A stretch of DNA of 64,000 bases from Styela clava (taxonomy: Eukaryota), in the NCBI RefSeq assembly GCF_964204865.1, contig NC_135257.1, forward strand, positions 5,580,001-5,644,000. The letters run 5' to 3'. Positions 3,201 to 41,134 of the stretch are shown here, in pieces (positions within the stretch are counted from its first letter, which is position 1; the number at the start of each line of letters is the position of its first letter). A program made the position numbers and the translations under genes. Below the pieces are notes generated by a model, which worked only from the letters and a program-made list of their open reading frames with translations, searched no databases and had not been told where the DNA came from.

Positions 3201-6200
3201 TTTTTCGCCAACAAAATAGATTAAAGCAACATATTTTTCCCAACATATAATGAATAATTAAGCTGATTTGATACTCTGCAGAATCTAAATGTACCATTTC
3301 ACGTGCTTTTCTGCAGTGTGACGAATTTCTATGCAACACTAACGAATGCATCCCTTATGAACAAGCATGCGATGGCATACAGCAATGTTCAGATGGAACG
3401 GATGAAAAAGATTGCAAAGTTTGTTGTACAAACATGATATTTGTATAGTTTGTTAAATTGAAACCTCTTGTATGGAGCTCTGTTGAGTACGACGTCTAAT
3501 ATCGTTTTCCTTTATATCCGATACAACTGTCCTTAGCTATACCACTGCATAAAAAATATGATGCAAATTATCAGAGTTAAGTTGTGGTTATTTGGACACC
3601 AATTGTCCATATGGATCGTTTTGTAAAATCGTTGTCGTAGGACTTTTTGTTGAAAAAATGGCTATTACTCGAAAATGATCAATTTCTAATTTTCAATACT
3701 TAAGAACTGAGGAAGATCGAATTGGGCTTGCAGGGACCGTACTGTTACGGAAACTCTTTGAATACGGTATAACAGTCTTAAGTTCCGAGATATTTATCAA
3801 CAGTACAAAACCAAGTCACAGTCCTCTCCCTAGTTTTTTTTCTTCAAGCGGCAATTCGCCGGCTTATATATTCGACAGCACAGATGGGCCGCCAAAAGTG
3901 TCACATCATTACCACTCATTTTGTTGTCGCCTCATCTGTTTAGTCGGTCGAATCAAGGTTGACACTACAAGCTCCGCTGTCGCGGTATTCGCACGATTAA
4001 GTGAAGTTATATATATTGAACGACAATAGAGGGTGGACCACAGATACCAGCAGGCTATCACCCTTTTTTAAATTAACCGTGACCACTATTTCACCCAATG
4101 ATTCCTTGGTCTATTCGCGATAGTTCTGCGATTTCATCCAAGTATCTCATCCAAGGAGAGCATTGCTCTCCTGTTAATTTAGCCGAAGCAGCCTAAACCT
4201 TCAATCAAGAAGCGTACATTAACTCCTCAATAGACCTTATTCATTTAAAATCCATCCTACGCGCAAAAAAAAAAGTGACGTAAAAATTTTTTTTTTAACA
4301 TTAGCTCTTATGGGAAATGTGATCACCAGAGCAGAAATTTGCATTTTTTGGGATTTTCTAGCAATATCTCAGTATGAACGTGGGCAGTTTTAAAAATAGA
4401 ATATTTTTTAGATAGTTTTCGATACTTTTATCACTATAAACACGGTCGAGATTTTTTATAATCGTTCATCGAAATTTTAATGGGCGAGGTGTTTCCACTG
4501 ATGTCACTCTCGCTTTACCATGACATTCGGCCATAGCATTGTGGTCTGCGATAAAATGCGCGCCGGCTGCTCGTTCTTCTCATTCTGTAGGACCGGTAAT
4601 TGATTACCGACATGTCGTCGCTTAGCATTTAGTGAAAGACCTATTTTCGCTATTGCAGTTATGCTGAAATGGCAGTCTGTTCACGTATTCAGTCAGGTTA
4701 TCTTCTCGTTATTGGCTTTGCACATGTCTTACCGATAGAGTGACCTTTCTCTAGAGGCTTGCTGACATATACGGTACCTGTATCTGTACCGGTATTGACT
4801 TTACACTTTATGTAATACAGTAATATGATGGTTAGATTAATGTTTGTTTGTACCGTACCGGTATACGACTTACCGTATCCTACCTATTGTCAAAAATGCA
4901 ATAAAAGTTTTAGTTTTCACTCTTTAATGCAATACTGGTGCCGGTACCGGTATGCTTAGGACTGTATGGTACGGTAATTATTATACGGTACAGTTTTAGA
5001 CTTAACAGTACCTGGTATGTGACAAATCAATTATCGTGTTGGAAATGTAATAATCAAATAATTTCTACATTAAGATCCTACTGTACGGTATATTATATAA
5101 CATATCATTTACAAGATGTCAGGCCGAGTTTGCTGTGTCATCAAATGCACCAATCATGCCTATAAACTTCAGAAGTGGAAATCATCCCACTGCCCTATTC
5201 ATAATGTATCGAAAGGTGAAGAAGGCTGTATTTGTACTCCACCGTTCGAGCATCATCCTTTTCCAACGGAACTCAAAGACCCGGAAGGTCGACAGAATTG
5301 GATACATAACATGAATAGAAAAGAACCGGGCAGTAGTAAGTGTGTACTTAATTGGCAGCCAACAAAATATTCTCGAGTATGTTCCATTCATTTCGTAGAC
5401 GGGAGACCCACTTCAAGTAACCCATATCCAACTCTGTGCATGGGATATGAAACATCAATCGTATCAAATAAAAGATGCTTGCCCAGTTATAGGGCGTCTT
5501 ATGCACCAAAATGTAAAAAACGTAGAACTGAAGTTTTGGCTGTTCCCACAAATTTAAATTTCGAACATAATTATTGCCTAAATGCAGATATGGGAAAACT
5601 TGCTCAAGTCATCAAAAGTCTTAAGATTGAGAATGCCAAATTACGAGGAAATAATAGAAATTTGAGATCCGAAGTTGCCAAACTAAAATGTTCATTTCGG
5701 AAAGTTAATGCTCTACCTCCATTACATACAGACAAGTCCGTGGCATTTTATACTGGGTTTCCTTCAAAAAAAGTTTTAGACAAAGTCACAAACCTTTTAA
5801 GAAGCAAGGCACCAAGGACAAACTTTTTAAAAGGCAACGCACCAAGAAAACGTATTATCAGCTCCAAAATCTTAATGTCTACCCGGATGCATAAACTGAG
5901 CTTTTCTCAACAACTCATTATGACTTTAATGAGGCTAAGACTCGGATTGTTAATCACAGACCTAGCTGAAAGATTTCATGTATCCCAAGCGACTGCATCA
6001 AGGGTTATCGGAAATATGTTGAAATTTTTGTCACATCAGATGAAAAGCCTAATCAATAATCCATCACGCTATCATATCATGAATTTACCCCGAAAGTTCA
6101 GAATAAGACCATACAATAAAGTCAGGTGGATCTTAGATTGTACAGAGTTGTTCATTGCGACCCCAAAGGACTTGCATATGCAGTGTATTACTTGGAGCGA

Positions 6201-9200
6201 CTATAAACACCACAATACTGCGAAATATCTTTTAAGTGTCCATCCAAATGGAATGATTAATTTTTTGTCGCGTGGGTGGGGTGGAAGAGCAAGTGACAAT
6301 CATATAGTCAAGAATAGCGGTTTTTTGAATTTGCTAGAACCTGGCGATATGGTAATGGCTGACAGAGGATTCCTCATCAGAGATGAGCTTCTCATTCGTC
6401 AAGCAGATCTATTGATACCTCCAGGAAAACAGGGCAAGGAACAAATGCCTCTAAGTGATGTGACAGCAACGAAAAACATAGCAAATAGGCGAATTGTGGT
6501 AGAGCAAGCCATAGGTCGCCTAAAAAAATTCAAAATTTTACAGTCGGAAATACCTATCAGACTATTGCCTCAATTGGACAATATTATGGTAATCTGCGCA
6601 GGTATCAGCAATATGAAACCACCCTTCTATTCCTAGGCGACCTAATATCCTGCCCCCCAATAATAGCCCTATGCTTTTGCTCTGTATTCGTGAGCTTTAA
6701 CTATAGTTAGATATCTAAATTAATATACAGGGTGTCTCAAAAGTAAGTTACGTTTCAGGTACTTGTCTTTTCATTTCTTCAGAAAACATAGTATGGATAA
6801 CTAGTAAAATTTAGGTAATGTTTGCATTTTTTAACAAACCATAAATGAAAAGGGGATTAACCTGAGAAATGAGGTGAAAATTCAAATTCTCTGAGGAAAA
6901 CATTAATTAATAATTTTAAATTCTCTGTTTAATAGGCGCTAAGTTTGCCTTGCTAATCTACATGCTTTTTGCCAATCAGCAATTTTGCTCCTCATTTTTG
7001 GGGTTAATCTTATTGTCATTCTGTGGGTTGGGAAAAAGTGTAAACAATACTTATTAAATTTTACTACTTATCCATACTATGTTTCCAGAAGAAATGAATG
7101 CTTTATCACGAGTACCTGAAAAGCAAATCAAAATTAAAAGTGTATACCGGTACTTACTTTTGAGACACATACCTACATGCATATTTGCAAAAACTACCTT
7201 TTATTTGTGGGGCTGAGCCATCACTGATTTCAATAAGTTTACTTCTTGATATTTCTATTTTTGAGCCCTATTTGTTTCTTGCAAAAACTGCCTTTTTTGT
7301 GAAGCAGAACCATTACTGATTTAAATAAGTTTATTTCTTGATATTTCTATTTTTGAGCACTATTTGTGTATTTGCAAAAACTGCCTATTATTTGTGAGGC
7401 AGAACCATTACTGATTTCAATAAGTTTACTTCTTGATATTTCTATTTTTGAGCCCTATTTGTTTCTTGCAAAAACTGCCTTTTTTGTGAAGCAGAACCAT
7501 TACTGATTTAAGTAAGTTTATTTCTTGATATTTCTATTTTTGAGCACTATTTGCAAAAACTGCCTTTTGTTTGTGAGGCAGAACCATTACTGATTAAAAA
7601 TAAATTTATTTCTTGATATTTCTATTTTTGAGCACTATTTGTTTATCTGCAAAAACTGCCTTTTATTTTTGAGGCTAAACTCTTGCTGATCTATTCATCT
7701 ATTAAGGACTATTTGAGTGAAACCCAAATAATAGTTTATTTATATTTGCTTACTCCTCTGCTGCCTTAAATGATTTATTTCATATTCATTTTTTTTACCT
7801 AATCTGACATTGAATGGTACTTCTAGTTCTGCTGTATATCCACATCCCCATTCATTAAACAATTCCTGTATGTAATCAGCATCATTTTGTTACTTGTACT
7901 CTTACAAATCATATGCCCACCCCAGGGATGGACCAAAAATTAAGGGTGATAGGCTCGCAGGACATATTTGTAGAAAGTTAAAAACCTTATTGATGGCCGA
8001 TAAATCACAGTTAAGAGTTTGAGCAGCGCATGAAGTGACTGCGCCAACATGGCGTCTGACATTTAATGTGAAATTTTTGTTAAATGTTCAGATGCATATG
8101 TCTGGTCTCGTAGTAGATTATGGTGCTTGAAGTCGACTTTCTTTTGTTGTAATGGCGATTGCTTGGTCACCTTGATGTACAAATCGAACGTATTTAGTTT
8201 GATTCATCAAGTTCCTGTAAGATTTCCCAAAGGGTGCCCCCACTTGTATCAGTTTTTGGCATCTCTAAAATGCGATTTTTTGTGCAAGTTCATACTTTTA
8301 TCATAGAGAAGAAATAAATGATTGTGTACTGCAAAATATTCCCATTCATTATAATAGGCGGACTCCTCAATGCTACTTTCCACTTATATTTGTGAGTAGA
8401 CAGCGCTGCTTTACTCAAACTTCAGTTTATTTTTCAATATTTTGGGGTTTTGAGCCATGCCTTTACAAGGTGGTCTTGAAATCCTGAATTTCTCAGTAAT
8501 AAAAATTTTAGCTGGACCTAAGTACAGCTAAAATTTTTATTATTGGGAAATTCAGGATTATAATGGCTCAAAGCCCCAAAATCTTGAAAAAAGATAGTTC
8601 TAAGTTCCAATATGATGGGCTTGAACATCAGAAATGAAATGTCCGAAACTTACATCTGTTCAGTGCAACTTAGGCCTAAGTCATAGGGGGGGGAAAAAGC
8701 TGAAGTGTGATTAAAAAAGGTTAATATAATCCACATTAAAATAACCAGAGCTCAGGTTTTCACCAACTGTGAATATCTAGAAAATCAAAAATAAAAAAAT
8801 TCCAAATTGTTTTTTTGCGTTTTTTTCGAAATTATGACTTAGGCCTGTTCTGTTCTCATAGGGCGAGGTGTCCAAATCTGAACTTGTGTACCAGTAGTTC
8901 ATTTAGCATCATTGCTTCATATACTCTTCACCTATAAAATTATTATTTTGTTTTAGAAGCTGAATCCTTGTGAGCTTTTGTGTTTACATATTGTTTATTT
9001 GCCAATACAGCTCGCCATTTGAAAAGCTGACACTCTGCTACGTCTTTGTTGACAAATAAATGATGATAGCTTATATGCGTGCGTTGGAATTATGTGTGTC
9101 AGGGATTGCCTAGGAGTTAGCTGATGGCTTGGAAATCCCATCGCATCTGTGTGTAATTACTTTAGGCCATGGAAGTACTGGCCGCCTCCATGAAAAGAGT

Positions 9201-12200
9201 TGATAAATGTAAAAAAAACTGGACTAATTTGGTTTTGGATAACCATAAAGAAAAACTCCATTAATATCAATGCTCTTTATTAATATGCAAACAATTTTTT
9301 ACTCTAGTCAAAGCAACTTGGGAGCAACAAACTCATTGAAAAAATATCTCAACTTGGGCTTTATACCCATCCAAAAACTCTCATCAAACATAATTCTACA
9401 TCTAATATGACCATGTACAGAGTAAACAAAAAAGTCACACCACTTAGTTTTTGAAATGGCCATTTGACCTTGAACTTGAAAATAGTATGGGTGTGTGGTT
9501 TTTAGCTTTGGTTCCCCCCCTTCATATACAATATATGGTGGCGGAGAGCATGCAGGAGAGGTATCTCTCAAGCTGTATGGACATTTAATTTCCAAAACAC
9601 CGTCACCGCAGCATTTGCAATACACCACCATGTCTGGAGATGCCCCTAGGAACAGCAAGTTTTGGTCAATGAAAAGGCCACATTCTCTAGCTGTTATCTC
9701 ATGTTTTGTTTGCCTCATCAAATCCAGGTAAACTGACTTTGCAATATTTTCTGTTTTCACGCCATATTTAACTGCAGGTAAGTGACCTAAATCTTTTTGT
9801 AGGCCGAACACTTTGTCTAATATTATATTGAGCCTAACATGCTTGCCTAAATTCAAACTATTGACCTTACACACTACCTCATGAAAATTTGAGGCAGTCA
9901 GCCTATTTTTGCGTGCCATTTTCCAATCATTATTAGTAGCCTGACCCTTTGTCCTTCTTTCTAAATCTTCAACCTCATCACTTGTAGCCGCTGTAAGACT
10001 ATTTTTCCAAACCTCCTTCATACTTAAAAGCTTATCAGATTTACTCTCCTCTTTCCCTGCATATTCGAACATCAATTCTTGAGACACTGAGGCATGAGCT
10101 ATGCTGAAACAACTACTCTCTCCAACATCTTTCAAACATTCCAGCCACTGCTCTGTACTTAGTGGTTTTTCACTTATAGGATCACTCTGTCGACAAATTT
10201 TTCTTTTGACTGAAATGAATATAATAGATTAAGTATATAGAAGTTCATCTCCCTCTTAATGATATTGCCCCATTATCAATCATTTCATTTCAGCAATCTG
10301 GCAGAAATAAAAACAAAAAGTAAATTAACAAACAGTGCAGTGCCTTTCAAAAATGAGTGTAGCTGCTATTCCATGTAGTGGAAGCTGGTTGTTTGAAGTT
10401 TCTGGATTCGTGGGTAATGTGAAGTTCGAGAATTGTTTCCCATTATCCTTCCATTACCTCAGTACACTATAATTTATACAAATGAGGCTCACCTGTTTCT
10501 CCGTATTTTGGCTTCTTCATTACTAAATGTCGTAGTTCACTTGGTTCAATTTTCAATTTTTTTGAGGGAATAATCCAAGTACATGGTAAGGAAGTGCACG
10601 CCTGATTTGAAGCACGCTCCATTTTTAGCAGAAGACTTGCTACATGATTACATGTTTGATGTATTCTAAGTATTGAAAAATAAATAATGTCACGAATAAT
10701 TATATCATAAGAAGATGTTTAAGGACAGAGAAATTATTATAAATGCAGTATCCATCTAATCTCTCACATCAGCATAGAGTTTTCAGCTGAAAACTACAAC
10801 CTTAGCACTTTTATAAATTTTCATTCTAACCATAATTCTACAACCTGCAGTTTTGTCAATTTACAATAATCTACTAAAATTTCACAATCAAAAATGAATT
10901 TCAGCAAAGTTATTAACAATTAAAAATAGTACTTTATGAGGTGCTCCTGAAGTATGTGTACCAAAAGGAGGTAATTATTTTTGTTCGCCTATTTTACATT
11001 AAGGCCTAACCTGGTACTCATACTTTGGGGGTACCCTTTACGAAATACATTCTGTAGGAATCTTACCCTGCAGTACAGGAACAAAATCCTCTAACAATCT
11101 GTCCATTATCCCGTCTGCAGCAAACCCACAACTTATGAGGCGGATCATTAATCCGCTGAGACGGGAAACAGTTTGCTTTCAGTATGCAATAATGTTTGAA
11201 GCGAAGATAATATACTTCTTTAAGCCACATGGAAGCAAAGTAGCTGTATGGCTTGCCCAGCTTATACCCATCCAAAATCTTCTCCATCACTTCAGCTTCA
11301 CCTTTACTCAAATACAGAGCAATGTCTGTAATGTGGAGGTTAGGCCAAAGAGCTACTCCATTTTTTTCCGCAATCCAGGGCAATGGATCAGATTCAGACG
11401 AATTAGGATCGGGTAACTTGATTCCATCTGGAGCAAGTAGGATATTTTGATATTCCTGCACCACAGAAGCTGAAAGCTCCTGCGGTGACTTTTTTATCTC
11501 CAGGTTCATTGCCTGTGTTGCATATGCAAGGGCAACCAACTCAGCTTTTGTTTTTTTTGATGTCGCAAGTCCATATCTTCTCAAAAAAATCTTTAAACTG
11601 TCTACATTCCACCGCATTATGTCCTCCATAGTATATTGTGGCATTGTTGGATGAAGATTTTAGAATATATGTGTTAATTGTAAATAATCTGATAACAACT
11701 ACAGGAAGATTGGCGAGGTGAAGCTTTTAGTCCTCGCTGCCGTAAGGTGGTTCACTAACCGCTGGTCGGTTACGGCTTGCTCCACCATCAAGTCCATGCT
11801 TCCGAAAACAAATAACTGGCTAACCAATACCAGACCTGGGCTGGTAACCGGACGAGAGGCCGTTGTTCGCCATATGATTAAGCCTCTCCCCCGGGATAAA
11901 TATGTAAATCCTATTGCAATATTGTATTCGCTGGACGAAAAGGAAGTTGCAGTAGCCTATACCGTTACTGGAAATATTAGGATCAGTTATGCATTTGTCT
12001 GTTAACTGAATAAAGATTAACTACCACTACCGATTTGTTCAAAAGGAATTATTTTAAATAGGATTTACATATATATCCCGAGAAGAAGAATATAAGACGG
12101 CCTAACTATAAGGCGAAACACGTCGTCTCATCTCGTCCATGTCGGTTACCGATATGAGGCTGGTTAGTTAATTTTCTCCAAAGCATGGACTTGATGATGG

Positions 12201-13127
12201 AATAAGCCTTAACCGCTCAGCCGTCACTGCGTTACGGTATGTGAACCCCCCCAACGATGGCGATGAGTCCAACCCGAATCGTATTCCTACTTCAGTACGG
12301 TACGGTACCGTACTGTCCTAACGCTTCTGAAACAAATGTTCTAAATCAAGTTTTTTTGGCCTGTCGGTATGGTACCGGTGGTTAAAATACGGTAACCTGT
12401 TAGCTTGTCTTCAGTATATGGTATCCAGCTGTACAGGTATAGATGCGTTAAACCTTCAACGCTTCCAGTATCCACGGTTACATTACCGCCTCCGTTGACG
12501 CGCATATTTGACGTACTGAAGCAATGTTGGCCGAATGTCATGGTAAAGCGAGAGTGACGTCAGTGGAAACACCACGCCCATTAAAATTTCGATGAACGAT
12601 TATAAAAAATCTCGACCGTGTTTATAGTGATAAAAGTATCGAAAACTATCTTAAAAATATTTTATCTTCGAAACTGCCCACGTCCATACTAAGATATTGC
12701 TAGAAAATCCCAAAAAATGCAAATTTCTGCTCTGGTGATCACATTTCCCATAAGAGCTAATGTTAAAAAAAAAATTTTTACGTCACTTTTTTTTTTGCGC
12801 GTAGGATGGATTTTAAATGAATAAGGTCTATTGGACGACTTACATTATCTCCTGCTGTGTCGACCATCATGAAAAGCCGTTTAGGTAAAATCAAATAATC
12901 GAGTTTTTCGTCGTGTTGTTTGCGTCAGTGGAATAAGAAACAACGGATCAGTAAAATGCATTCAAAATAACTATATAAAAACTATGCTTTTCTTTCAGTA
13001 CGCAGGAGGATGTCCACCAAATCACTTTAAGTGCAACAATACACAATGCAGACCGGACAAATGGAAATGCGACGGAATTGATGATTGTGGGGATAAATCG
13101 GACGAAATTGATTGCCCATACATATAA
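283..13127 (+). CDS. Secreted LDL-receptor class A (LDLa) repeat protein, ~300 aa, 8 coding exons
   Basis: GT-AG exons join in frame: 283-352 ([23 protein letters not shown], signal-peptide-like), 915-1039, 1602-1712 (alternative donor after 1721), 2013-2135, 2617-2727, 2977-3108, 3317-3418, 12999-13127 (TAA). Exons 2-8 each encode one Cys-rich module such as [30 protein letters not shown], with the acidic DCxDGSDE tail; the first module is partial. No TM segment before the stop. Confidence 0.85.
4232..4533 (+). repeat. Left terminal inverted repeat (302 bp)
   Basis: Reverse complement of 12528-12829, including matching 10-nt homopolymer runs. Confidence 0.95.
5116..6636 (+). CDS. THAP-domain Harbinger/ISL2EU-type DDE transposase (506 aa, intronless)
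   Basis: N-terminal THAP (CCVIKC...PFP...W...VCSIHF), EHNY plus coiled coil, HTH ([33 protein letters not shown]) and DDE_Tnp_4-type catalytic motifs ILDCTE, MADRGF and [17 protein letters not shown]. Confidence 0.93.
   Translation: MSGRVCCVIKCTNHAYKLQKWKSSHCPIHNVSKGEEGCICTPPFEHHPFPTELKDPEGRQNWIHNMNRKEPGSSKCVLNWQPTKYSRVCSIHFVDGRPTSSNPYPTLCMGYETSIVSNKRCLPSYRASYAPKCKKRRTEVLAVPTNLNFEHNYCLNADMGKLAQVIKSLKIENAKLRGNNRNLRSEVAKLKCSFRKVNALPPLHTDKSVAFYTGFPSKKVLDKVTNLLRSKAPRTNFLKGNAPRKRIISSKILMSTRMHKLSFSQQLIMTLMRLRLGLLITDLAERFHVSQATASRVIGNMLKFLSHQMKSLINNPSRYHIMNLPRKFRIRPYNKVRWILDCTELFIATPKDLHMQCITWSDYKHHNTAKYLLSVHPNGMINFLSRGWGGRASDNHIVKNSGFLNLLEPGDMVMADRGFLIRDELLIRQADLLIPPGKQGKEQMPLSDVTATKNIANRRIVVEQAIGRLKKFKILQSEIPIRLLPQLDNIMVICAGISNMKPPFYS
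6728..7168. mobile_element. Decayed palindromic MITE (Tc1/mariner-like TA-CAGGGTG end) nested in the transposon
   Basis: GTGTCTCAAAAGTAAGT at the left matches ACTTACTTTTGAGACAC at the right. The arms (~6728-6875 and ~6989-7168) are imperfect reverse complements. The right terminus is degraded. Confidence 0.7.
7182..7692. repeat. Tandem array of ~93-bp units, ~5.5 copies, with an alternating (dimeric ~187 bp) pattern
   Basis: GCAAAAACT recurs at 7187, 7281, 7374, 7468, 7553 and 7649. The core CTGATTT.AATAAGTTTA.TTCTTGATATTTCTATTTTTGAGC is in each full unit. Confidence 0.95.
8430..8591. repeat. Long inverted repeat / hairpin
   Basis: Inner arms 8480-8514 and 8525-8559 (33/35 Watson-Crick); outer arms 8430-8458 and 8563-8591 (27/29). 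Confidence 0.9.
9308..11644 (-). CDS. SAP-like / SWIM zinc finger / YqaJ (lambda-exonuclease fold, PD-(D/E)XK) protein, 550 aa, 3 exons
   Basis: Exons 11644-11067, 10665-10493 and 10209-9308 have GT-AG borders and total 1653 nt in frame. Splicing creates the SWIM motif CSCTAG|IHQTCNH followed by CTSLPCTW. The N-terminus [24 protein letters not shown] is SAP-like. The C-terminus has RLTASNF, ECGL, LGASPD, LEIKCP and YYFQVQGQM. Minus-strand AATAAA at 9276-9281. Confidence 0.9.
10940..11036. mobile_element. Internally deleted copy of the GGGTACTCC MITE family in intron 1 of the YqaJ gene
   Basis: GGTGCTCCTGAAGTATGTGTACC...TTGTTCGCCTATTTTACAT...CCTAACCTGGTACTCATACTTTGGGGGTACCC matches copies at 34395 and 61808. 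Confidence 0.7.
11704..11914 (+). mobile_element. SINE 3' portion (same family as 39351-39664), nested in the transposon
   Basis: CAAGTCCATGCTTCCGAAAACAAATAACTGGCTAAC...GGGATAAATATGTAAATCCTAT is the reverse complement of the 39.3-40.8 kb copies. Confidence 0.8.
12058..12270 (-). mobile_element. SINE 3' portion in the opposite orientation, nested in the transposon
   Basis: ATAGGATTTACATATATATCCCGAG...AAGCATGGACTTGATGATGG matches the sequence from 39351. Confidence 0.75.
12528..12829 (-). repeat. Right terminal inverted repeat (302 bp)
   Basis: Reverse complement of 4232-4533. Confidence 0.95.
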
Positions 13128-14338: not shown

Positions 14339-16030
14339 TCATGATTCGCTGTTGGTGTTTTCATCTAATTCGTCATTCTTCGATAGTTGTTTAAGATCGT
14401 TAGATTCTGTGCTCCGGCATTTTATCCAACAATGTTGCAGTTTCGAGCAAACATTTTCGAACCAGTGGGGCTGAAAACGGTTTGGGTTTCGTTGGCTGAA
14501 ATGATATCCATACACAAAGTAGATGACCAGACCTAATAAGAACAAATTTTGTTTGTTAACAAAAATGTTAATTTGCTTGTGATACCAATGAATAGCATTC
14601 CATTCAAACATTTATAAATAAAGATTTAGATTTTAGATTATGACAGAAATTCACGTACGTGTAGGATCATTTGACGGATAGGCTGATTGGCATTGCGTGA
14701 TTAACAAACATTAAAAAAAATGACTTCGGCCCAACATGCTAAACTTTTGTTTTTGCCAAGTCGACTTCACCGAATCGAAGTATCAAACCGGGTCGATTGA
14801 TCTGCCCTTTTGTTCTTTAGGTCGAGTCAGTGTTGCGTACCATCTGGTTAAAATTCAAGGGGGCGGGGCCTTGTGATTCAGATCACTAAACTCCATGCAA
14901 ATTATTGATGAAATGGTGTCGACAGTGGCAATTAAAGCAAAAGAAAATTATAAATAACTCACCAACCGACACCCATATAATAAGTCGAATCCAAGTCAAA
15001 TACTGAAGTTTAATCATGAAGAATAAATTTGTACAAATACAGAGATACGGAAGAAATGGAACTAGTGGCACCTGCGTAAATGTAAAATACAGAATGTCCA
15101 TATTTGCAATATTCATTAGAATATATGTGTGTAAACATGAAAAAATGATAAAGGGCAATTCAGTTCTGGTGATATGCAAGTCACATGTGAACTATGTCAC
15201 AACGACCTTTTGCTGTTTTCGCGATGTGGAGTACAAACATTAATATATTATTTACTATATTATTAAATTTATTATGTTGAGGGGAAAATTTGAAAAGGAA
15301 CAATATGAAGAAGGAACTTACTCGAAAATTCTTTTCCTGTGATGCGTCGTCTTCGTGTTGTTGATGAGCAGCGATTAATAGAAGAGAAGCAATAGTTATC
15401 AACGTGAAGATGACAAAAAGCAAAACCACCCACCACGAGCCGATGATAAATTTTTCCCAAGTATACGACAACAAGAGCATCCCCGATAAACTAGAACAAA
15501 CAGACACTAATAGCGCAAATACCACCACTTTTCCAGGCTTATATCGTCCAAAATGTAGGTCTAAGAAAGTTCCACAAAATTTGGATTTTAACATCCCGGC
15601 TTTATTTTTTCCGCTAGGCTGGGTGTTCTCGGAACTGGTTGTTGAATTGTTATCGGATTTGCTTCTCGCTGGTAATTCTTGTTTTGTAGAGTCGTCTCCA
15701 TTGTGAATTGTTTTTTGATAAACCAATCTAGAAGTTTCACTTTGCTTTGGTTTTGTTGCTGGTTGTGCACCGGATGAATCCAGTCCTGTTTAAAAATGTT
15801 GATAATTACTAAAACGAGAATATCGGTCGGAGACCAAAGACTTATCGATCGAAACTGCGGTTTCGATTCATGACTCTATAGTGACACTGCGTGTCCCATC
15901 ACTAATTAATTAATAACTCTCTAATTATACGACCTAATTCCGAGATATGATGAATGCACATGCAAAATTTGGAGCAGATTCAACCTCGCCTTCGTGAGAT
16001 ATCGCGTTCATCTAACAGACAAACAAACAA

Positions 16031-31553: not shown

Positions 31554-34500
31554 TCATGCCCAAATCTGAAAAGTAGCGAATTCAGGGATGTTACAAGCTG
31601 GAAAAAGACTACAGAGACGTGTGTTACTTCCTTCAAGTTTAGCCAAGGCCTGATATCTCCACTCTCCAGTAGATATCACCAGTGCGAAAGCCAAAAAATA
31701 TGATTGAAACCAAATTTTGGTTTTACAAATGGCACTAAAATGCCTATAGCCAATTTAGATGATAGCAAAGAAATAAAATAATAAGCAAAAATTAACTGCA
31801 GATATGTAAAAATGTGAAAACCATACCATTTATATTACCACATATCAACATTTCCATCCAATAGAATCATAAATAGAATCTGACTAACCCATATGTTAAT
31901 GCAATCTTATTCTCCCTATCATATTTCAAATGGGCAGTACACACAGAGAATCCGATGTCATTATGAGGCTTTTATGAAGGGTTTCATACAAACTTTCGAA
32001 TAGCCAGCCACTAGGACGAAGGAAGCACGCCAAAACCAGATTTTTTCAGTCTTGACAAAGCCTACACCACAGGTGAAGTTTTGGGGCTGAGTTTAGAAAC
32101 TCATTCTCAAGCAATTGTTCGAGATGGCTAAGTTTTGAGTTCTCTATTATCCATAAATGGCGAAAATGAAAAAAATATCAACTGGAAATATAAGCTTACC
32201 CGTAATGTTGTATCCCAACTGCCAGAACAAAATGCTGTTCCATCAGGTGACATTCTTAAAGTACTAACTCTATTTTCATGACCAAATAATGCCCCAATCT
32301 TTATCCCTTGAATTGTATCCCATGCATGAATCAAATAATCATTGTAAGCTCCATACAATACTCTTCCTGAAATTAAATAACGAAAATTAGTTGCCACAAA
32401 AGGCCAAACCATATATTTTTACTATTCCGAATACATTCTGATAAAACATTTTCAAATATGGAATATTGAATACATTCTGAATTGGGGGGAAGTTTGTGTG
32501 GAAAATTACCTACGATAAATCACTATATCTTTGTGATAATCATTTACAACAACATAAATATAAAGGCCATTGTTTTTTCTGTGTTGTTTGTTACCCGTTG
32601 AGATATCGAAGTTTGATCTGCTTGTCTGATGTCTCAAAATCCCTAATTTTTCAATAAAAATGTACTGAACTATTCCTAAATTCAAAAATTTATTTCATCG
32701 ACTATAATGCATTTCGAATGTATCCGATTCTATTTGGATATCCCCAGTCAACAGTATTGAATTTACTTCACTAGCTCATGGAATTTTCAAAAAATGAATC
32801 TAATTGAAAAAAAAAGGAAACACATACCACTCAGAGAAAAGTCAACTGCATTTACTCCAAATAACACAGATTTCTTCTGGTAACAAGCGATCTCCTTGTC
32901 AGCACGAAGATCAAACAAACGTATCTATGAATAAATAAATGAAGTCGTTGTTATAGCTTTATAGCAACAATCAAATAATAAAAACACAACACAGGTGCTG
33001 AAAAGATATTGATCAGATTCAGAACAGAACAATCAAATTTGAAGTGAATGTAGTAGTGCTTCCACTTCACTATGTCTCACTCAAATAACAATGTTGTGCC
33101 CTTGCCTGGAGAACCAAATAATTCAGTGTGAAAAAAAACTACAATAAAAATACATAGAAAGAATAAGTAATGCCAGTGCAAAAATGAAATGCAAATAATA
33201 TAGTTCTTTCAAAGTATAATATAAGTTCTGTCAATGTATGGTTGGCTAGAGCTACCTGACATTAGTGAGAAAACTATAATATGAAGGAATAGAATTTAAT
33301 TTAGTATGAAAAAGCACATTGCAGCAAAATTGCAAAGCAAAAATGAATGGAGTGATAAGTGAAGAGATATTTTTCAGAAAAATTTATTTTTTTAACATTA
33401 TAAAATATTGTACCTAACTCATATTATTGCAATATTAAATGGGTCAAATTTTATAACATAAGATTTGACATACATTAACGCCCATGCAAAAAAGAATGCA
33501 AACATATATTCCGTAAATTTTTCGAAGAAACAGAAGTACATACCTTTCAGATAATATGAAGAATTGAGATGAACAGACAAAACACCAAAACAAAATGAAC
33601 AAATAACAAACAACATGAAAATCGACAGTGACCAGTTGGCATGCAAAAGCAAACATAGAGTGACAAGTGAAGTAAACACCTGTATGGAAAAGAAAGTATG
33701 ACAAAGAATGTTCAAACATGAACCTAATTTTGCTATATTCATAAATATAAAATCAAAGTAGTTTTAATAGCCAATAGTGTAAGGATTTGATCAAAACAAA
33801 ATTTTAATTTGAATGTTATTCGAAACTATGTTCCAGATGATCAAACTATATTTCTTATAAATTCAAAATAATTAGTATTTTTGTAAAACTTTACAGAAAA
33901 TATCGGCATATATTTTGATATATAGCAAAGTTGCCCAGTTGAATTATATAATATTTATACGTAACATAATATCAAACAACTTGGATATGTAGTCTAACGC
34001 TTTACAAGTTAGGCCCACACGCCCACTAATAAGTGTGAAAAATCTTTCAGCACTATTAGATATGACCACCTGTTTCGATCATTAATATTATTTAAATAGA
34101 ATTCTGGTCATCAACGAAAGAAAAACGCAATTTATGGAAGCTATTATTGTGTCTTTATGCAAAGTAGAATTTGAGGAAATAAAGCAGCAAAAAGCATGAG
34201 AGCTAGGTTACAACAGGTGTTAAAATCAGCCATTGATATTAAGCAGCCAATTTTTTTAAACATAAATTTTCTTTATGATTGGAATGTAGTGGTTAAAAAT
34301 ACTCATTGGTCTCGCATTCAAGAAATCGAATATTATTATAGAGTACAAAGGATGGAATAAAAGGAGTGCACATGCGACATATATAATGAATGATGGGTAC
34401 TCCAGAAGTATGTGTACCAATATGAAAGTAACTAATTTGTTTGCCTATTTTACATCAAGTTGTGTGAAAGGAACACAGACTCGTAAAAGAACTAAAATAA

Positions 34501-37500
34501 GGAAAATCAGAATAAAATGGCCTAACCCTAACCAGGTACACATACTACGGGAATACCGAATGATGTTATGAATTGTGTTTTATGCAATGAGTTTTTATGA
34601 TGACAGAACAGAACTGATAAAATCTCTTAAAAAAACGAACCACTTGACCCACCAACAAAAACCCTTCACTATGTGAGTATTTTAATATATAACACTTTCT
34701 CCAAGTAGTATATAATATCTGATTCCTCTACATCAAAAATTTTCAATCACCTTCAAAATTTTGTAATGCTTCTCACAAACATACAAACACATATAGGCCT
34801 ATATTCGTGCATGATACCACACTAATGAAAATAAACTCATGCAAATGACACTTCCTCAAATAAAAACATACCGAAGCATCTTCCGATCCTGATGCAAAAG
34901 CTTCACCACTTGGAAACCATCTGAGAAAATCAAGAAATAATCACAGAATTATAAAATGAAGGATCTGAACACTGGTGGTATTATGTAGCAAAAATATAAT
35001 TTACAAATTCTATCTTTATATTCTAAAATCTATCTAACACACATTTCAAAATGTTGGTACTCCCGAAGTATGTGAACCAAGCTGGCAGACACCGGAACGT
35101 GGTAAGTGTACCAGGCTGGGGTTAGGCCATAATTTTATTCCAATTTTCTATATTTTAGTTTTATTACGAGTTCGGGGACTAGCCAAGAGACTCTCGTAGT
35201 ATTTGTATCTGAAATTATGGCCCAACCCTAACCTGGTACAAATACTACGTTCCCAGTGTCCGTCATATAGGTTCACATACTTCGGGAGTACCCAAAATTT
35301 ATTGTGACGAATAAGCAAATGAGTTTGCATTTGTTTTCATTGCAAAGGACTAACTAAAGAGAAAAAAGTAACAAACCTGACTGTATTGATATCAGATTCA
35401 TGAGTGCTGAATCGTTGAACACATTGCGCTATTCTCATGTCCCATACACAAGCTGTATTGTCACATCCCTGCATTGAAATAAAACAGAATTAAATAAATT
35501 TCTTTTTTTATAAGAAAATATTCTCAACAAAGGCGATACACACTCTCTCTGATATAAAGATCTCAGAAGTTCACTGAAGGGCGCTCCAGAAGTATGTGCA
35601 CCAAGATGGCTGACACCGAAACGTAGTATGTTTACCAGGTTAGGGTTAGGCCATAATTTTAATCCAATTTTTCTTATTTCAGTTTCTATTATGAGTCCTG
35701 TAGTGTTTGTATCTGAAATTATGGCCTAACCCTAACCTGGTACACATACTATGTTCCTGGTCCGCCATCTTGGTTCACATACTACAGAGTACCCACTAAA
35801 GTGCCTTGGACTACTGATACTATAAAGCACATGTACAATCCAGATAACTACATTGTTTTTCAGTGATACATAAACATTTAAATTTCATCACAAGATTGTA
35901 TCAGCATTTTCTATTGTAATGATTAATAGGTATTTCCCGAGATTGATAGAACAGTTTCCACTCAACATAGTACTTACCCCAGATATAAATAGATTTCCTG
36001 TTTCAAGGGGAGACAAAGCAGCATCCATGACATCACATTGATGTCCATGGAAACTCTGTAATAATTGACTACTTTCTACATCCCATAATGCACAAGTACT
36101 GTCTCCTGAAGCTGTTAAAATCTGTAAGTGTCAAAAAATTATTTTAAGATAAAAAATTTTGATCATCGACTGAGTATATCATCCATGATGAATCAGTATA
36201 TCAGAACATTTACTATCAAGTAATTGAGTTGACTGTAATCGGTTGTAATATATTTTTATTTATTTCAAATAGGTTGATATAGATAGAATTCAGTGTTTAG
36301 TCTAGCGATGGATATCTGAAAATGTAATATACAGCAAAACTACGATAGGCACCATATTTTACTTTATATTTTTTTCACTTGCTGATGGCAATCCTAAGTG
36401 AAAGACCTTATTACAATATACACATTCTTGAGAAGATCTTTTTAACATATGATCATTTTACATTTTACTATATCTGAATTTTTTGCATGTCTAAGATTGT
36501 AATGCTTATTTATTTATGTCGAAAATTTCAAATAATGAAGTTAATGTTATGAAATATATAAATACAGAGATACATCAACACCAATAAAAAATATTAGAAA
36601 ATTTTTGTAAATGCATAAATACTTATAGAACGTTATCGATTTACTTGCTATCTTATGAAATCTCAAACTAACTAACTGACCCTCTTAGTGGGCCACGAAC
36701 GGCCTTCACTAGGTACCATTTGCGATAACTACATTAATATACAGTAGAATGACTGTAATTCTTTGACTGTAATGCATTATTTTTATGTTTTGGTTTGTCA
36801 ACTTTATTAGTATTAAAGAGGCCCATAAAATAACCGATGGAAACTGATATTAAAAGCAAAGCAGGTATTTTTATTTAACAGCAGGGGACCACAATTGTTG
36901 AGCCTTTAGAGGGCGGCCATAGATCATGAAAGTTTGAGAACCACTGGCCTTCACCTTATCATTCTAATATTATATATCAAAAGTTGCATTCTTGGATAAC
37001 TATCAAAAAATATAGAAAATAACCTGATGATCAGATTGTGTGAATGAGCATGATGAAATATAGCTTGTATGCATTGCCACCACTTTTCTTTGTTGTGATT
37101 GTGTGTTGGACCCTGCTTCTGGTGTACTGTTTGTTGAAGTTGGTTTGATTGCACCAGGATTGGTAGATGATGCAACTGAAGGATTACTTGCGGGTGATGA
37201 ACCGATACGGAACACTGAGCATTTATTATCAAGACCACTAAAATACAATAAAGCAAAGTGTGAAAATATGGACACAAAAGTTCAATATTAACAGCAGTAT
37301 CACCAGCTTAGGGAGACTCGCACAGAAATATGGCTTGGCACAGATTTTTCAAACTAAAAAAAGGGAACAGCCGTGACGTGACATAGGTCCGCAAATACAG
37401 GGCCGCGACCCAAATTTGTACTACAACTTTGTGAACCTCTGGCACCCCTGACATAGGAGGCCATGGTTGGCAGAATAAAAACAGTAATAAAATATAACAG

Positions 37501-40500
37501 TGAAAATTAGTGTGAAATATCAAATTTCATATGACAAAAAAATAGCCTGTTGGCAAATTTTTCGAGAACAAAAATTTGAAATCGATCAGTCTGTAAGAAA
37601 AGGGCCATAATAATCCATATGGCCACTTTTTCACCAATAAACAAATACCAAGCAAATCAAAAATATTTCTTCATGGGTATACTATAGTAATGACATTCAA
37701 GATATAAAGAGGTAAATATATATTAAAAGTTACTATCTGATATCAGCAAACCCAGTCTAGAGAATGATATGTATTATGTTTCCTTGTGAGAAAAAATTTA
37801 AAAGTAGTTAAAATCAAACCAGTAGTTTTTTGCTACTTCAGTGAACTCATCATGAGTAATTTTGAACTTTTTAATAATAATACATTATAGGTAGCACTGC
37901 CTGCAATATTAGCTGTTTCATTATTTTTTACAAAGTGAACAATATTTCTGTTACAAAAAGCCAAAGAAACCAGCAAAAAAAGTTCAGGGCTAAAGTCCAA
38001 TAAGTAAATACATGGAACTACCCAGCAAAAATAAAGGATAGATAGGAAATAAAAACATCAAATGATTCCCTCTCAAAGACTTACCCGCATGCAATCAAGC
38101 GTCCGGATGGAGCATATGCACAAGAATTCACCCATGTTGTCGGCAAACTAATGGTATGTTCCTGTATAGACATAGGAATTAGCATTTTTTCAAACAGGGG
38201 TATAAATGACAACAAAACTCAATGGACAAAATAACAAGAATTTTATATAATAAACACTTACCTTTGTTGATGTAAAAGCATCCCACACTATCACTTTACC
38301 ATCCTGAAAAATAAAGAAGAGATCATAATCATATTACTGTTTATTAAACATAAAAATAATTGATGCAATTGAACGAAAACTAGCTTCTTAGCCAGTCTGT
38401 ATTCATAATTTATCAACATACATAAAACAAGACACAATATAAGCTGAAGTAAATCTTTTTAAGTTGTATATTCAATCTACTTGATCAAGTGCCTTGACAA
38501 TAAAATAATTTACATGCATCCAGACCAAAAATCAATAAAGGATGACAACATTGAGCTTATTAGGATGAAACTACTTCATCTGGGAAAACCTTATAGACAG
38601 GGATGAATCTACCAGAATAAACCAGAATTATCAATACAAATTTTATGAAAGCTGGGTTGAACTTGAGTCGATAATAGTGGACTATATGAACTAAATAGCT
38701 ACACCAAACAAAAACATAATGTATATTCAATGTCAAAAGTTTATTACTCAAAAATTTAATAACAGGATACCTGTGAGGAACTGACAATTCTTCTTCTGTC
38801 TTGTGACCAATCTATATTAAGAACTTTACTTGTGTGACCTTTGAGTAACTTCCTAGTACGAAGTTGCAATGTAGATACCTGCTTCACTTTATTTCCCATA
38901 GAAAACACTGAAAAATGAGATAGACGTCACATGATGCAATAAAATCTCGCACTGTATTGATCTTCAGGTAAAGAAAAGCATATGTAAAAATCAGGACTAT
39001 GAATGGTGTCAGAATAAAATTAAAATAAAAGGCCTCATAAAACACATTGTGGGGATCACTGTCACATTTTAGAATACGCTATTTTTTCCAACCATACTTG
39101 AGTTGGTTGATTGGAAAAACAAAGTTAATTTAAATTTTCAAAAATACTCAACTTCAATTTAAAGAAATGACTTACTATCAAATGCAATATCAAGATGTAA
39201 ATTCAAAACAAAAAGTTTTCAAAAGTTAAGAAAACCATGTTTTTTGTTTTGAATATTGAATAGAGTAAGATTATGAAAAACATGGTGCTGTTTATGGTGC
39301 AAAGGCGTTGAAAACAGGAAAAAAATAAGTTTCATAACTTAATCCAGGTCTAGGAAGGATTTACATATATATCCCGAGGGAGAGGAACGCCGATAAGACA
39401 GCTTAACCATATGGCGAACCACAGCCTCTCGTCCAGTCCAGGTCGGGTATGGGATTAGTTAGCCAGTTATTTGTTTTCGGAAGCATGGACTTGACGATGG
39501 AGGAAGTCGTAACCACCCTACAGCCCTACGGTGGCGAGGAGTCCGGCAATCCTCTCGCACATGATCATCCCCGCATGGGATTCAAACATGCAAACCCACG
39601 AAGGGTAATCAGAGATGCGGTGGCGAGCGTATTCCTAACACTTAGCACGATGCGCCACATCGCGGAGTAAATGGATAAATCACCAGATCTTATTATTGAA
39701 TGTATAGGATAGGATTTACATATTTATCCCGGGGGAGAGGAAAGCCGATAAGACGGCCTATCCATATGGCAAACCACGGCCTTTCGTCCGGTTACCATTC
39801 CGAGTCGGGTATGGGATTAGGGTGGTGTAGCCAGTCTGCGGACGATTTCATTCAAACCGCTATAAAACAAAAACCAATATTTCTAACCCGTTAATTTTTC
39901 CACCGTAGGTGCATTGGCATTTATTCTACACGCTGAACTTCGAATTAACTTTCTACGACCAGGGGTTAAAGCTATACAAACCACCAAAGTACGACACTCT
40001 GAAGAAGTATTTGCGACCGAACGACCAGTATGCGATCACGGATTTCAAGCCTTGAACATCGTTTCTGCTGCGTCGAGACTAGGGCATACGCAGCCATGCG
40101 TGAAAAAATGGGCTTCTAATTGCATTTCTGACCGTCATATATTTTAAGAACACGGTTATTTCAAACAAAATTCTTCAAATTATAAACAAAGCACCGCAGC
40201 AATCAAACAGACAAAAACACGGTGGTCGCAAATTAGTTGACAAAGATTTTATTGACGTATTGGAAATGCGCACCCCCCTACTCCCCCTCCTTTGAAGGTA
40301 GAAACGCGAAACTTTAAAGATGGTTAAAAGAAACACAACTCTACCCACCTGCCAAGTTTCATCTCTTTATCTCTTATATTTGTATGGATTTTCAAGCTTC
40401 TTTGAGGGAACAATGGGTAGTTGGCGACATGGTAAAATGGTCCGTTTTTTCTCTTCGGTCGTAACTTTTTTATTTGTGGCCGCATTTTAGTGTAATTTCG

Positions 40501-41134
40501 CGGAGCTACGAGGGATAAGTGGACGATAACGCGTGAGAAATATCGTCGCGGTTCGTTAATTTTTTCGGCATTAATTTAATCGATGAAGTTGATGGTCGCA
40601 GATAGGTCATGGCCGCAAAGTGGGTAAGCCACCCTAGTTATATTGTTTTGTTTTCGGAAGCATGGACTTGGTGGTGGAGGAAGCCGTAACCGACCAGCGG
40701 TTACGTGAACCTCCCTCCCTGTCCAGCAATCCTCTCGCACATAATCATCCCTGCATGAGATTCAAACCTGCGAACCCACGCAGAGTAATTAGAGGTGCGG
40801 TGGCGAGCGTATTCCTAACGCTTAGCCCGTTGAGCCACACCGCCGCGCCTCAACGAATATTCTAGAGCAAGAGATTGACTTCAGCTGTTACACTTTCCAG
40901 CTATCGGTACAAATTTTATGTTACAGCTACGTGCGTAAGGATGCAATACAAATTTATTTTAGTTACCGTACAGTTTTAGGTACAATAATTCCTGAATTAG
41001 GTGTCATACTAACGGTTAGCATCGTCAAGCTTTCTTCTGTCTTCCTTGAGTTTTTGGCGAAGTTGTTGAGCTTCCTTTTTCAAGTTCTCGATCATTTCCT
41101 TCTTATTTTTATCCGACATTAAAATTCCAGCCAT
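31554..41134 (-). CDS. GNB5: Guanine nucleotide-binding protein subunit beta-5, 383 aa, 11 coding exons
   Basis: Exons 41134(or 41119)-41014, 38907-38771, 38303-38262, 38161-38085, 37237-37024, 36121-35978, 35468-35377, 34920-34872, 32924-32828, 32366-32200 and 31565-31554 total 1152 nt in frame. Beta-5-type strings: [68 protein letters not shown]. Confidence 0.95.
34395..34558. mobile_element. MITE, GGGTACTCC family
   Basis: GGGTACTCCAGAAGTATGTGTACC...CCTAACCCTAACCAGGTACACATACTACGGGAATACC. Confidence 0.75.
35056..35293. mobile_element. Palindromic MITE, GGGTACTCC family
   Basis: Arms GGTACTCCCGAAGTATGTGAACC...GGTTAGGCCATAATT and AATTATGGCCCAACCCTAACC...GGTTCACATACTTCGGGAGTACCC. Confidence 0.85.
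35579..35794. mobile_element. Palindromic MITE, GGGTACTCC family (~80-bp TIRs containing GGTTAGGGTTAGG)
   Basis: Long inverted arms. Further partial copies lie at 16431-16500 and 61808-62001. Confidence 0.85.
39351..39664 (-). mobile_element. tRNA-derived SINE, near full length
   Basis: Minus-strand head GTGGCGCATCGTGCTAAG (A-box-like)...GTTTGAATCCC (B-box-like) and tail GGGATATATATGTAAATCCT. Other fragments lie at ~30135-30222, ~48715-48785 and ~59780-59980. Confidence 0.8.
39704..40846 (-). mobile_element. tRNA-derived SINE split by an 815-bp DNA-transposon insertion
   Basis: 39704-39819 plus 40635-40846 together align to 39351-39664. Head GGCGGTGTGGCTCAACGGGCTAAGCG...GGTTCGCAGGTTTGAATC, tail (ATCCT)2. 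Confidence 0.85.
39820..40634. mobile_element. Non-autonomous DNA transposon, GGGTGG...CCACCC termini, TA TSD
   Basis: Imperfect 24-bp TIR (18/24: GGGTGGTGTAGCCAGTCTGCGGAC vs GGGTGGCTTACCCACTTTGCGGCC). Removing it plus one TA restores the SINE sequence GGGATTAGTTA seen in the neighbouring copy. Confidence 0.8.

Follow-up and report, generated by a model that had tools for sequence, protein, structure and literature searches.

Two pieces of open reading frame, 193 and 275 aa long, lie close together on the minus strand of a 64,000-nucleotide stretch of Styela clava DNA (hereafter the window), and the locus raises the question of whether they belong to one spliced gene and, if so, what its product does. 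A preliminary description had joined them through a 173-nt middle exon into a fusion of SAP, SWIM, and YqaJ domains, and regarded the result as a hidden, intron-containing version of a phage-type recombination enzyme. Both pieces were found in the window, the shorter one starting at the ATG at 11644 and the longer one fitting a TTG start within the third exon (counted by hand). The reconstructed coding sequence on the minus strand is formed by 11644-11067 (578 nt), 10665-10493 (173 nt), and 10209-9308 (902 nt), giving 1653 nt and a frame of 550 aa with a single, terminal stop; we refer to this gene as ORF2. Exon 1 (11067..11644) encodes a SAP-like domain at residues about 6-46 together with a sheet of four strands and, from a predicted SWIM finger, the C188-x-C190 half; the other half, C198-x-H200, is encoded by exon 2 (10493..10665). 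Exon 3 (9308..10209, with the stop at 9308) contains a linker and the YqaJ/lambda-Exo nuclease domain. Intron 1 (10666..11066, 401 nt) is in phase 2 within the Gly of CxCxAG and contains a piece of a high-copy dispersed inverted-repeat family (10926-11035), while intron 2 (10210..10492, 283 nt) has stops in all three frames. Both introns are of the GT-AG type, with the donors GTAAGA and GTGAGC and the acceptors ...TTAG and ...TCAG. The motifs fall where they had been placed, namely CSCTAG at 188-193 in exon 1, CNH at 198-200 in exon 2, SPD at 441-443 followed by M444, CKCC at 448-451, and EIKC at 457-460.

A scan of the frame identified 10 GT-AG combinations that stay open in the scanned ranges, all 10 of them using 11067/10665, and thus the frame alone leaves the second junction unfixed. 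Both junctions are fixed to the base by skips in RNA-like contigs: one contig of run X1 lacks the 401 nt that separate 10665 from 11067, and one contig of run X5, from a different study, lacks the 283 nt that separate 10209 from 10493, each with CT..AC on the plus strand. The exon ends 11067/10665 and 10493/10209 of the preliminary description were therefore both seen as joints, by one contig each (short side 29 and 47 letters) in probable RNA runs. Four of 14 sequencing runs (X1, X2, X5, and X8) were compared with the window, their RNA nature being a guess since none is recorded as RNA. Neither joint occurs in the contigs of the DNA-like run X8 or of run X2, no contig of the four runs spans both joints, and unspliced intron coverage is present in X1 and X2. 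The nine other frame-keeping combinations for the second junction were rejected, with no matching joint in any of the four runs. The X1 junction contig bears variants of a copy of the gene elsewhere in the genome (C4, see below), so the window copy is not necessarily the source of the spliced transcript. Both junctions recur in the NCBI model of that C4 copy (P0001, Styela clava LOC144422063, 431 aa), which offers only partly independent support because it was possibly built on similar RNA data. The model starts at Met120 and omits the first 119 residues including the SAP domain, an annotation that is corrected here. Given the 10 open combinations and the single contig per junction, one could still argue that mis-splicing joined unrelated frames, or that the gene belongs to the host or is a captured passenger; the exact junctions in two studies speak against this.

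The three domains differ in how they are recognized. The YqaJ domain in exon 3 lies above the Pfam cut-off (E 2.8e-17), so this part of the proposed fusion stands as described. The SAP domain of the 550-aa product stays below its cut-off (E 0.1, 12.7 bits versus 23.9), and the SWIM model (PF04434) has no match in P0001 at E ≤1; both assignments are predictions drawn from homologs and fold. The Pfam SAP model is passed by aligned homologs from oyster, coral, sea cucumber, and clam (P0002, E 1.6e-8; P0018, E 1.1e-10), with which exon 1 aligns at 22-39%. The predicted structure of exon 1 matches SAP, LEM, and Rho-N domains at middling Z scores of 5-7; SAP domains including those of PIAS1 and hnRNPUL1 reach 5-6.4, tied with Rho-N and LEM, and Foldseek returned no match for this model at E ≤0.001. 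For SWIM, 9 of 30 homologs match the Pfam model at E ≤1 (best 2.5e-5), and the four ligands are invariant wherever aligned (C188 and C190 in 25, C198 and H200 in 28 of the 30 rows, the rest being gaps). At the predicted finger, the P0001 model shows strands followed by a helix, with a weak fold match to ZSWIM8 (Z 4.8). The SAP-SWIM-YqaJ architecture recurs across marine animals, many homologs carrying in addition a C-terminal PHD finger that is absent from the Styela clava protein. Public annotation already carries both N-terminal modules, with Pfam SAP on 7 of the 120 matches listed and the UniRef name 'SWIM-type domain-containing'. In the literature we found no earlier description of SAP or SWIM in the second gene of the transposon group identified below, and Repbase Reports or subscription journals may hold one.

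The ligand positions, the splice joint, and the invariance in homologs bear out the proposal that intron 1 splits the CxC...CxH ligands of the finger. We extended the comparison to 80 metagenome loci found by a search with the ORF2 alignment. At 21 loci a GT donor follows the second base of the Gly codon in CxCxAG, the same position as intron 1, and 20 of these 21 also have an acceptor that restores CxH. The finger is encoded without an intron at 36 of the 80 loci, although some of these contigs may be transcripts; one locus has both kinds, two have spurious motifs, and 22 have none. The intronless relatives confirm that both halves belong to one domain, which also argues against a mis-spliced join. 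On an unrooted nuclease tree of 47 rows (six duplicates, two rows lacking the segment, and two ambiguous loci left out), the intron label requires 4 changes versus 15 for shuffles, and intron-bearing rows sit in several deep branches. The simplest reading of these sequences is that the intron is old and was lost several times, and its distribution shows it to be common to deep lineages of the group. The split finger is a case of ordinary intron placement, and nothing points to a regulatory switch. Intron 2 is not general, since a partial look revealed no second intron before the nuclease in 10 of 18 loci with intron 1. The intron position shared among related loci and the SAP domain missing from the NCBI model are the small additions made here.

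The nuclease domain is the best-defined part of the protein. Besides YqaJ, exon 3 matches Pfam Viral_alk_exo (E 2.9e-13) and the sequence of LHK-Exo (E 2.2e-6). An AlphaFold model of P0001 based on a 30-sequence alignment (mean pLDDT 81.3) has two confidently predicted parts, an N-terminal unit of sheet and helix and the nuclease domain (mostly above pLDDT 90), with a low-confidence linker between them. In the PDB it most closely resembles LHK-Exo and lambda exonuclease (E 2.5e-9 to 1e-7; TM 0.65-0.74 over the target), followed at lower rank by mimivirus R354, herpesvirus nucleases, and Cas4. Enzymes of baculoviruses and giant viruses match in a viral library, and among the viral nucleases the fold matches reach E 5.7e-13 for a betabaculovirus protein and 3e-5 for KSHV SOX. 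The model of the protein alone thus has the PD-(D/E)XK fold that the preliminary description expected, and the assignment of the C-terminal domain to the lambda-Exo fold is supported at the level of prediction. In LHK-Exo, the 5'-phosphate pocket is formed by Arg12, Thr17, Ser19, and Ser100 and the metal ligands include Asp102 and Glu112, as given in PMC3239189. These residues align to R350, T355, S357, S441, D443, and E457 of ORF2, which belong to a predicted set of key residues in exon 3 (W346, R350, T355, S357, E404, S441, D443, E457, and K459). Among 77 nuclease segments that are open and longer than 180 aa, out of 81, D443, K459, E404, and S357 are conserved in 77, E457 in 76, and R350 in 72. 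The acidic PD and ExK residues are thus present in an intact, near-invariant active site as first claimed, and the claim that ASPDM departs from the usual motif did not hold: the position after SPD is variable, with G at the M444 position in only 47 of 77 relatives. CKCC was likewise rejected as a special feature, its three Cys positions being lineage-restricted (C in 32, 30, and 40 of 77). ORF2 is therefore predicted to encode an active lambda-type 5' nuclease. By analogy with homologs, the protein may bind DNA, depend on zinc, act in the 5'-3' direction, and form trimers; herpesvirus relatives are monomers according to PMC3239189, so that a processive trimer is not implied by the fold alone.

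ORF2 lies inside a transposon of 8.6 kb (4232-12829) that contains two convergent, tail-to-tail genes, and it is almost certainly the second gene of an ISL2EU element. The left terminal inverted repeat (TIR; 4232..4533, plus strand, 302 bp) begins with AGACC and is 97% complementary to the right one (12528..12829, minus strand, 302 bp), the ends being set by four copies. ORF1 (5116..6636, plus strand) is intronless and encodes a 506-aa transposase with THAP (E 2.9e-5), HTH_Tnp_4 (E 2.2e-15), and DDE_Tnp_4 (E 2e-45) domains; D341, D416, and E463, whose motifs are located in the sequence, are its likely catalytic triad. The spacer between the genes (6745..8600) holds nested repeats, namely a hairpin element at about 6745-7125, a 95-bp tandem array at 7136-7690, and a hairpin at about 8425-8600, and a nested high-copy element formed by an inverted-repeat pair (11745..12235) lies upstream of the ORF2 start. 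Read depth exceeds 10,000 at 11732-11825 in all four runs. AT duplications flank the element on the left (4230..4231, within AAT) and on the right (12830..12831, within ATT), and AAT/ATT borders occur at all eight ends of the four element copies and at 28 of 29 distinct flanks from 30 loci of the wider TIR family. The C6 copy is inserted in a dispersed repeat whose empty form at window 40765-40813 has one AT and the filled site two, which shows an AT target-site duplication at an A|AT|T target as published for ISL2EU.

Three further copies (C6, C4, and C2) diverge by 0.46-0.73% from the window copy at aligned bases. The C6 and C4 copies each have a one-base indel in the transposase frame and the C2 copy lacks most of ORF2; in the window copy both frames are open, and its 95-bp array is about 270 bp longer than in the other three. 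This family provides a spliced example of recent age, and since the window copy has kept both frames intact, the function of ORF2 is directly testable in it. ORF2 moves with the element in three copies, and the host-gene, passenger, and mis-splice reading, which we hold to be extremely improbable, is largely refuted by the junction contigs, the copies, the linkage described below, and the intronless relatives. At least 32 further TIR matches (83-90% identity) are present in the same genome (e.g. C6:12267388-12269419, C9:6887883-6890352, and C1:22363072-22365546), and several of them, paired about 2-2.5 kb apart, look like non-autonomous derivatives of this TIR family. Elsewhere in the window there are several dispersed inverted-repeat families at 34393-35761, 39356-40859, and 61911-62008, one of which has the piece in intron 1 while another is the one nested at 11745-12235, and a 202-aa stop-free frame at 15181-15789 (minus strand) with weak membrane-type Pfam matches (E 0.02-0.1), which is probably not a gene.

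The association of the two genes extends well beyond this copy. The family comprises 403 representatives at E ≤1e-30. A transposase is present on 48 of the 80 metagenome loci, and on 26 of the 27 with a downstream flank of at least 3 kb, with convergent gene order in 47 of the 48. Distances in the ORF2 and transposase trees are correlated (Mantel rho 0.57, p 0.001; 30 non-identical pairs) and 12 of 17 supported transposase-tree splits recur in the nuclease tree, an agreement to which shared hosts and near-copies may contribute in part. Within the Styela clava genome, 12 of 22 other YqaJ loci (L051-L072) have a related transposase within a 3-3.6 kb flank. Three of these loci (L052-L054) are long open frames lacking the SWIM intron, and at L051 the nuclease and transposase genes point away from each other. 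A triplet of YqaJ copies about 4.9 kb apart at C13:21933276-21943590 (L058, L061, and L062), with no ISL2EU transposase nearby, is possibly another element type. Among database proteins, YqaJ is joined in frame to DDE_Tnp_4 in P0070 and to a Mutator-like transposase (PF20700) in P0077, P0080, P0098, P0103, P0104, and P0110. A YqaJ region also occurs in P0078, an isoform of pipefish syntaxin-binding protein 1b, where either an element was exonised or the annotation is chimeric.

The claim that the gene is under selection is supported as purifying selection. Against an older, decayed C9 copy, dN/dS is 0.16 in exon 1 (104 codons) and 0.45 in exon 3 (85 codons, one stop), and exon 2 gives no useful alignment (9 codons). 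Among 58 pairs of relatives, 36 are saturated at synonymous sites; of the 22 measurable pairs, 16 are below 0.7 (14 of them below 0.3) and six exceed 1. All six lie among four near-identical intact nuclease copies (L132, L141, L145, and L148), which differ by 10-19 changes, almost all nonsynonymous (dN/dS 1.5-3.5), and probably reflect neutral decay. The four young copies of the window family are too alike for an informative dN/dS (two synonymous and three nonsynonymous changes in the C4 nuclease).

According to PMC4482050, what the second gene of PHIS elements does is unknown. We lean towards a reading in which this spliced second gene encodes an active lambda-type 5' nuclease that resects the ends left by transposase excision. 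As in its family, the THAP-HTH-DDE transposase would bind the TIRs, excise the element, and insert it. The C-terminal domain of ORF2 is predicted from sequence and fold to bind a free 5'-phosphate end through R350, T355, S357, and S441 and to cut with two metals held by D443, E457, and K459, while SAP and SWIM may tether the enzyme to DNA or to the transposase. Resection in the 5'-3' direction at the empty donor site would steer repair towards copying from the homologous chromosome or the sister, and this in turn would restore the donor copy and raise the copy number of the element. The conserved pocket for a free 5' phosphate suggests action on already cut ends, and thus favours resection at the donor break. 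In the description of PMC4122938, a single ORF, the transposase, is the usual content of Spy elements, which indicates that related DDE chemistry has no need of an ORF2 nuclease and favours a helper role; the ISL2EU transposase, too, most likely carries out excision and insertion by itself. For the specific step, 5' resection of excision ends, the case is about evenly balanced. Since a single-strand annealing protein of the Red beta kind is missing from the element, the host would have to supply factors for any pathway resembling lambda Red.

The same linkage allows a closer partnership. TnsA is a catalytic subunit of the two-part Tn7 transposase, and ORF2 could be a similar subunit, with the DDE enzyme cutting and joining the 3' ends and the PD-(D/E)XK enzyme cutting or trimming the 5' non-transferred strands. 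The near-obligate linkage and agreeing trees are consistent with this, as are the in-frame fusions to DDE_Tnp_4 (P0070) and to Mutator-like transposases (P0077) and a lambda-Exo-like nuclease reported downstream of the KolobokE transposase domain (PMC9587614). However, the conserved 5'-phosphate pocket together with the Trp suggests pre-existing ends as the substrate, the related Spy elements mostly make do with one ORF, and the Pfam TnsA-like model is matched weakly by only 1 of 30 homologs (E 0.049), and we therefore consider a subunit of this kind rather unlikely. Its wider form, in which ISL2EU would be the eukaryotic counterpart of TnsA/TnsB, with a SAP/SWIM-tethered nuclease processing the 5' strands, strand transfer by the DDE enzyme, and a long co-travel that kept the old finger intron, is doubtful to a similar degree.

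The N-terminal modules suggest a different emphasis. ORF2 occupies the slot of the Harbinger Myb-like gene, whose product is described in PMC9179366 as binding both transposase and TIRs; its own N-terminal module is conserved and the TIRs are long (302 bp), as they might be if SAP-SWIM bound the TIR or transposase and aided nuclear import, with the nuclease secondary. The catalytic residues, however, are kept in 76-77 of 77 segments and the transposase has THAP and HTH domains of its own, which makes a mainly DNA-binding adaptor unlikely. The nuclease might also limit transposition or clean up after it, digesting either the flanks or element DNA that is excised or abortive. A comparable role, the degradation of DNA intermediates, is proposed for the DEDDh exonuclease of KolobokD by Kojima et al. 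(PMC9587614). A purely self-limiting gene would be harder to retain in an element that spreads between lineages, and we regard this role as very unlikely. Resection of the donor ends thus remains the reading that we prefer.

Compared with known systems, the locus finds its place among ISL2EU (IS4EU) elements, a group of the PHIS or Harbinger-like DNA transposon superfamily (PMC4482050, PMC4122938, PMC9179366). ISL2EU is defined in PMC4482050 by an AT duplication, a THAP-HTH-DDE transposase, and a YqaJ ORF2, with ascidian families listed, and the same description is repeated in PMC9179366. The hidden recombination enzyme of the preliminary description is instead the standard second gene of these transposons. 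The window element shares with them the THAP+HTH_Tnp_4+DDE_Tnp_4 transposase, the YqaJ ORF2, the AT duplication in A|AT|T, and an animal host. It differs in its 302-bp TIRs (published range 6-259), in TIR ends of AG rather than the usual GG, and in its length of 8.6 kb against a published mean of 4.8 kb, which is in part due to the nested repeats; the values in PMC4482050 are published as typical rather than required. The ORF2 lengths given there include 500 (Ciona savignyi ISL2EU-1_CS), 512, 515, 536, 545, 631, and 646 aa. In that account ORF2 is described by YqaJ only, whereas SAP, SWIM, and the intron structure are additional here.

With lambda exonuclease and LHK-Exo (PDB 1avq, 3syy; PMC3239189), ORF2 shares the fold, the 5'-phosphate pocket, and the metal ligands, but its N-terminal part is longer by about 310 residues, which include SAP and SWIM, and it belongs to an element that has no annealing-protein partner. 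The alkaline nucleases of baculoviruses, giant viruses, and herpesviruses share the Viral_alk_exo match and the fold matches; theirs is a role in viral replication or shut-off, whereas ORF2 sits in a TIR transposon and has spliceosomal introns. KolobokE (PMC9587614) and Mutator-like elements (P0077) likewise pair a DDE transposase with the same nuclease family, but they belong to other superfamilies, and their nuclease lies downstream of the transposase or forms a fusion with it, in contrast to the separate, convergent SAP-SWIM gene of ISL2EU. PIF/Harbinger elements with a Myb-like ORF2 share the transposase family and the two-gene layout and differ in a Myb/SANT ORF2 and a TWA duplication, as PMC4482050 characterizes them. 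Collectively, the gene is another example of an already described two-gene element type, whose classification is unchanged by the present findings.
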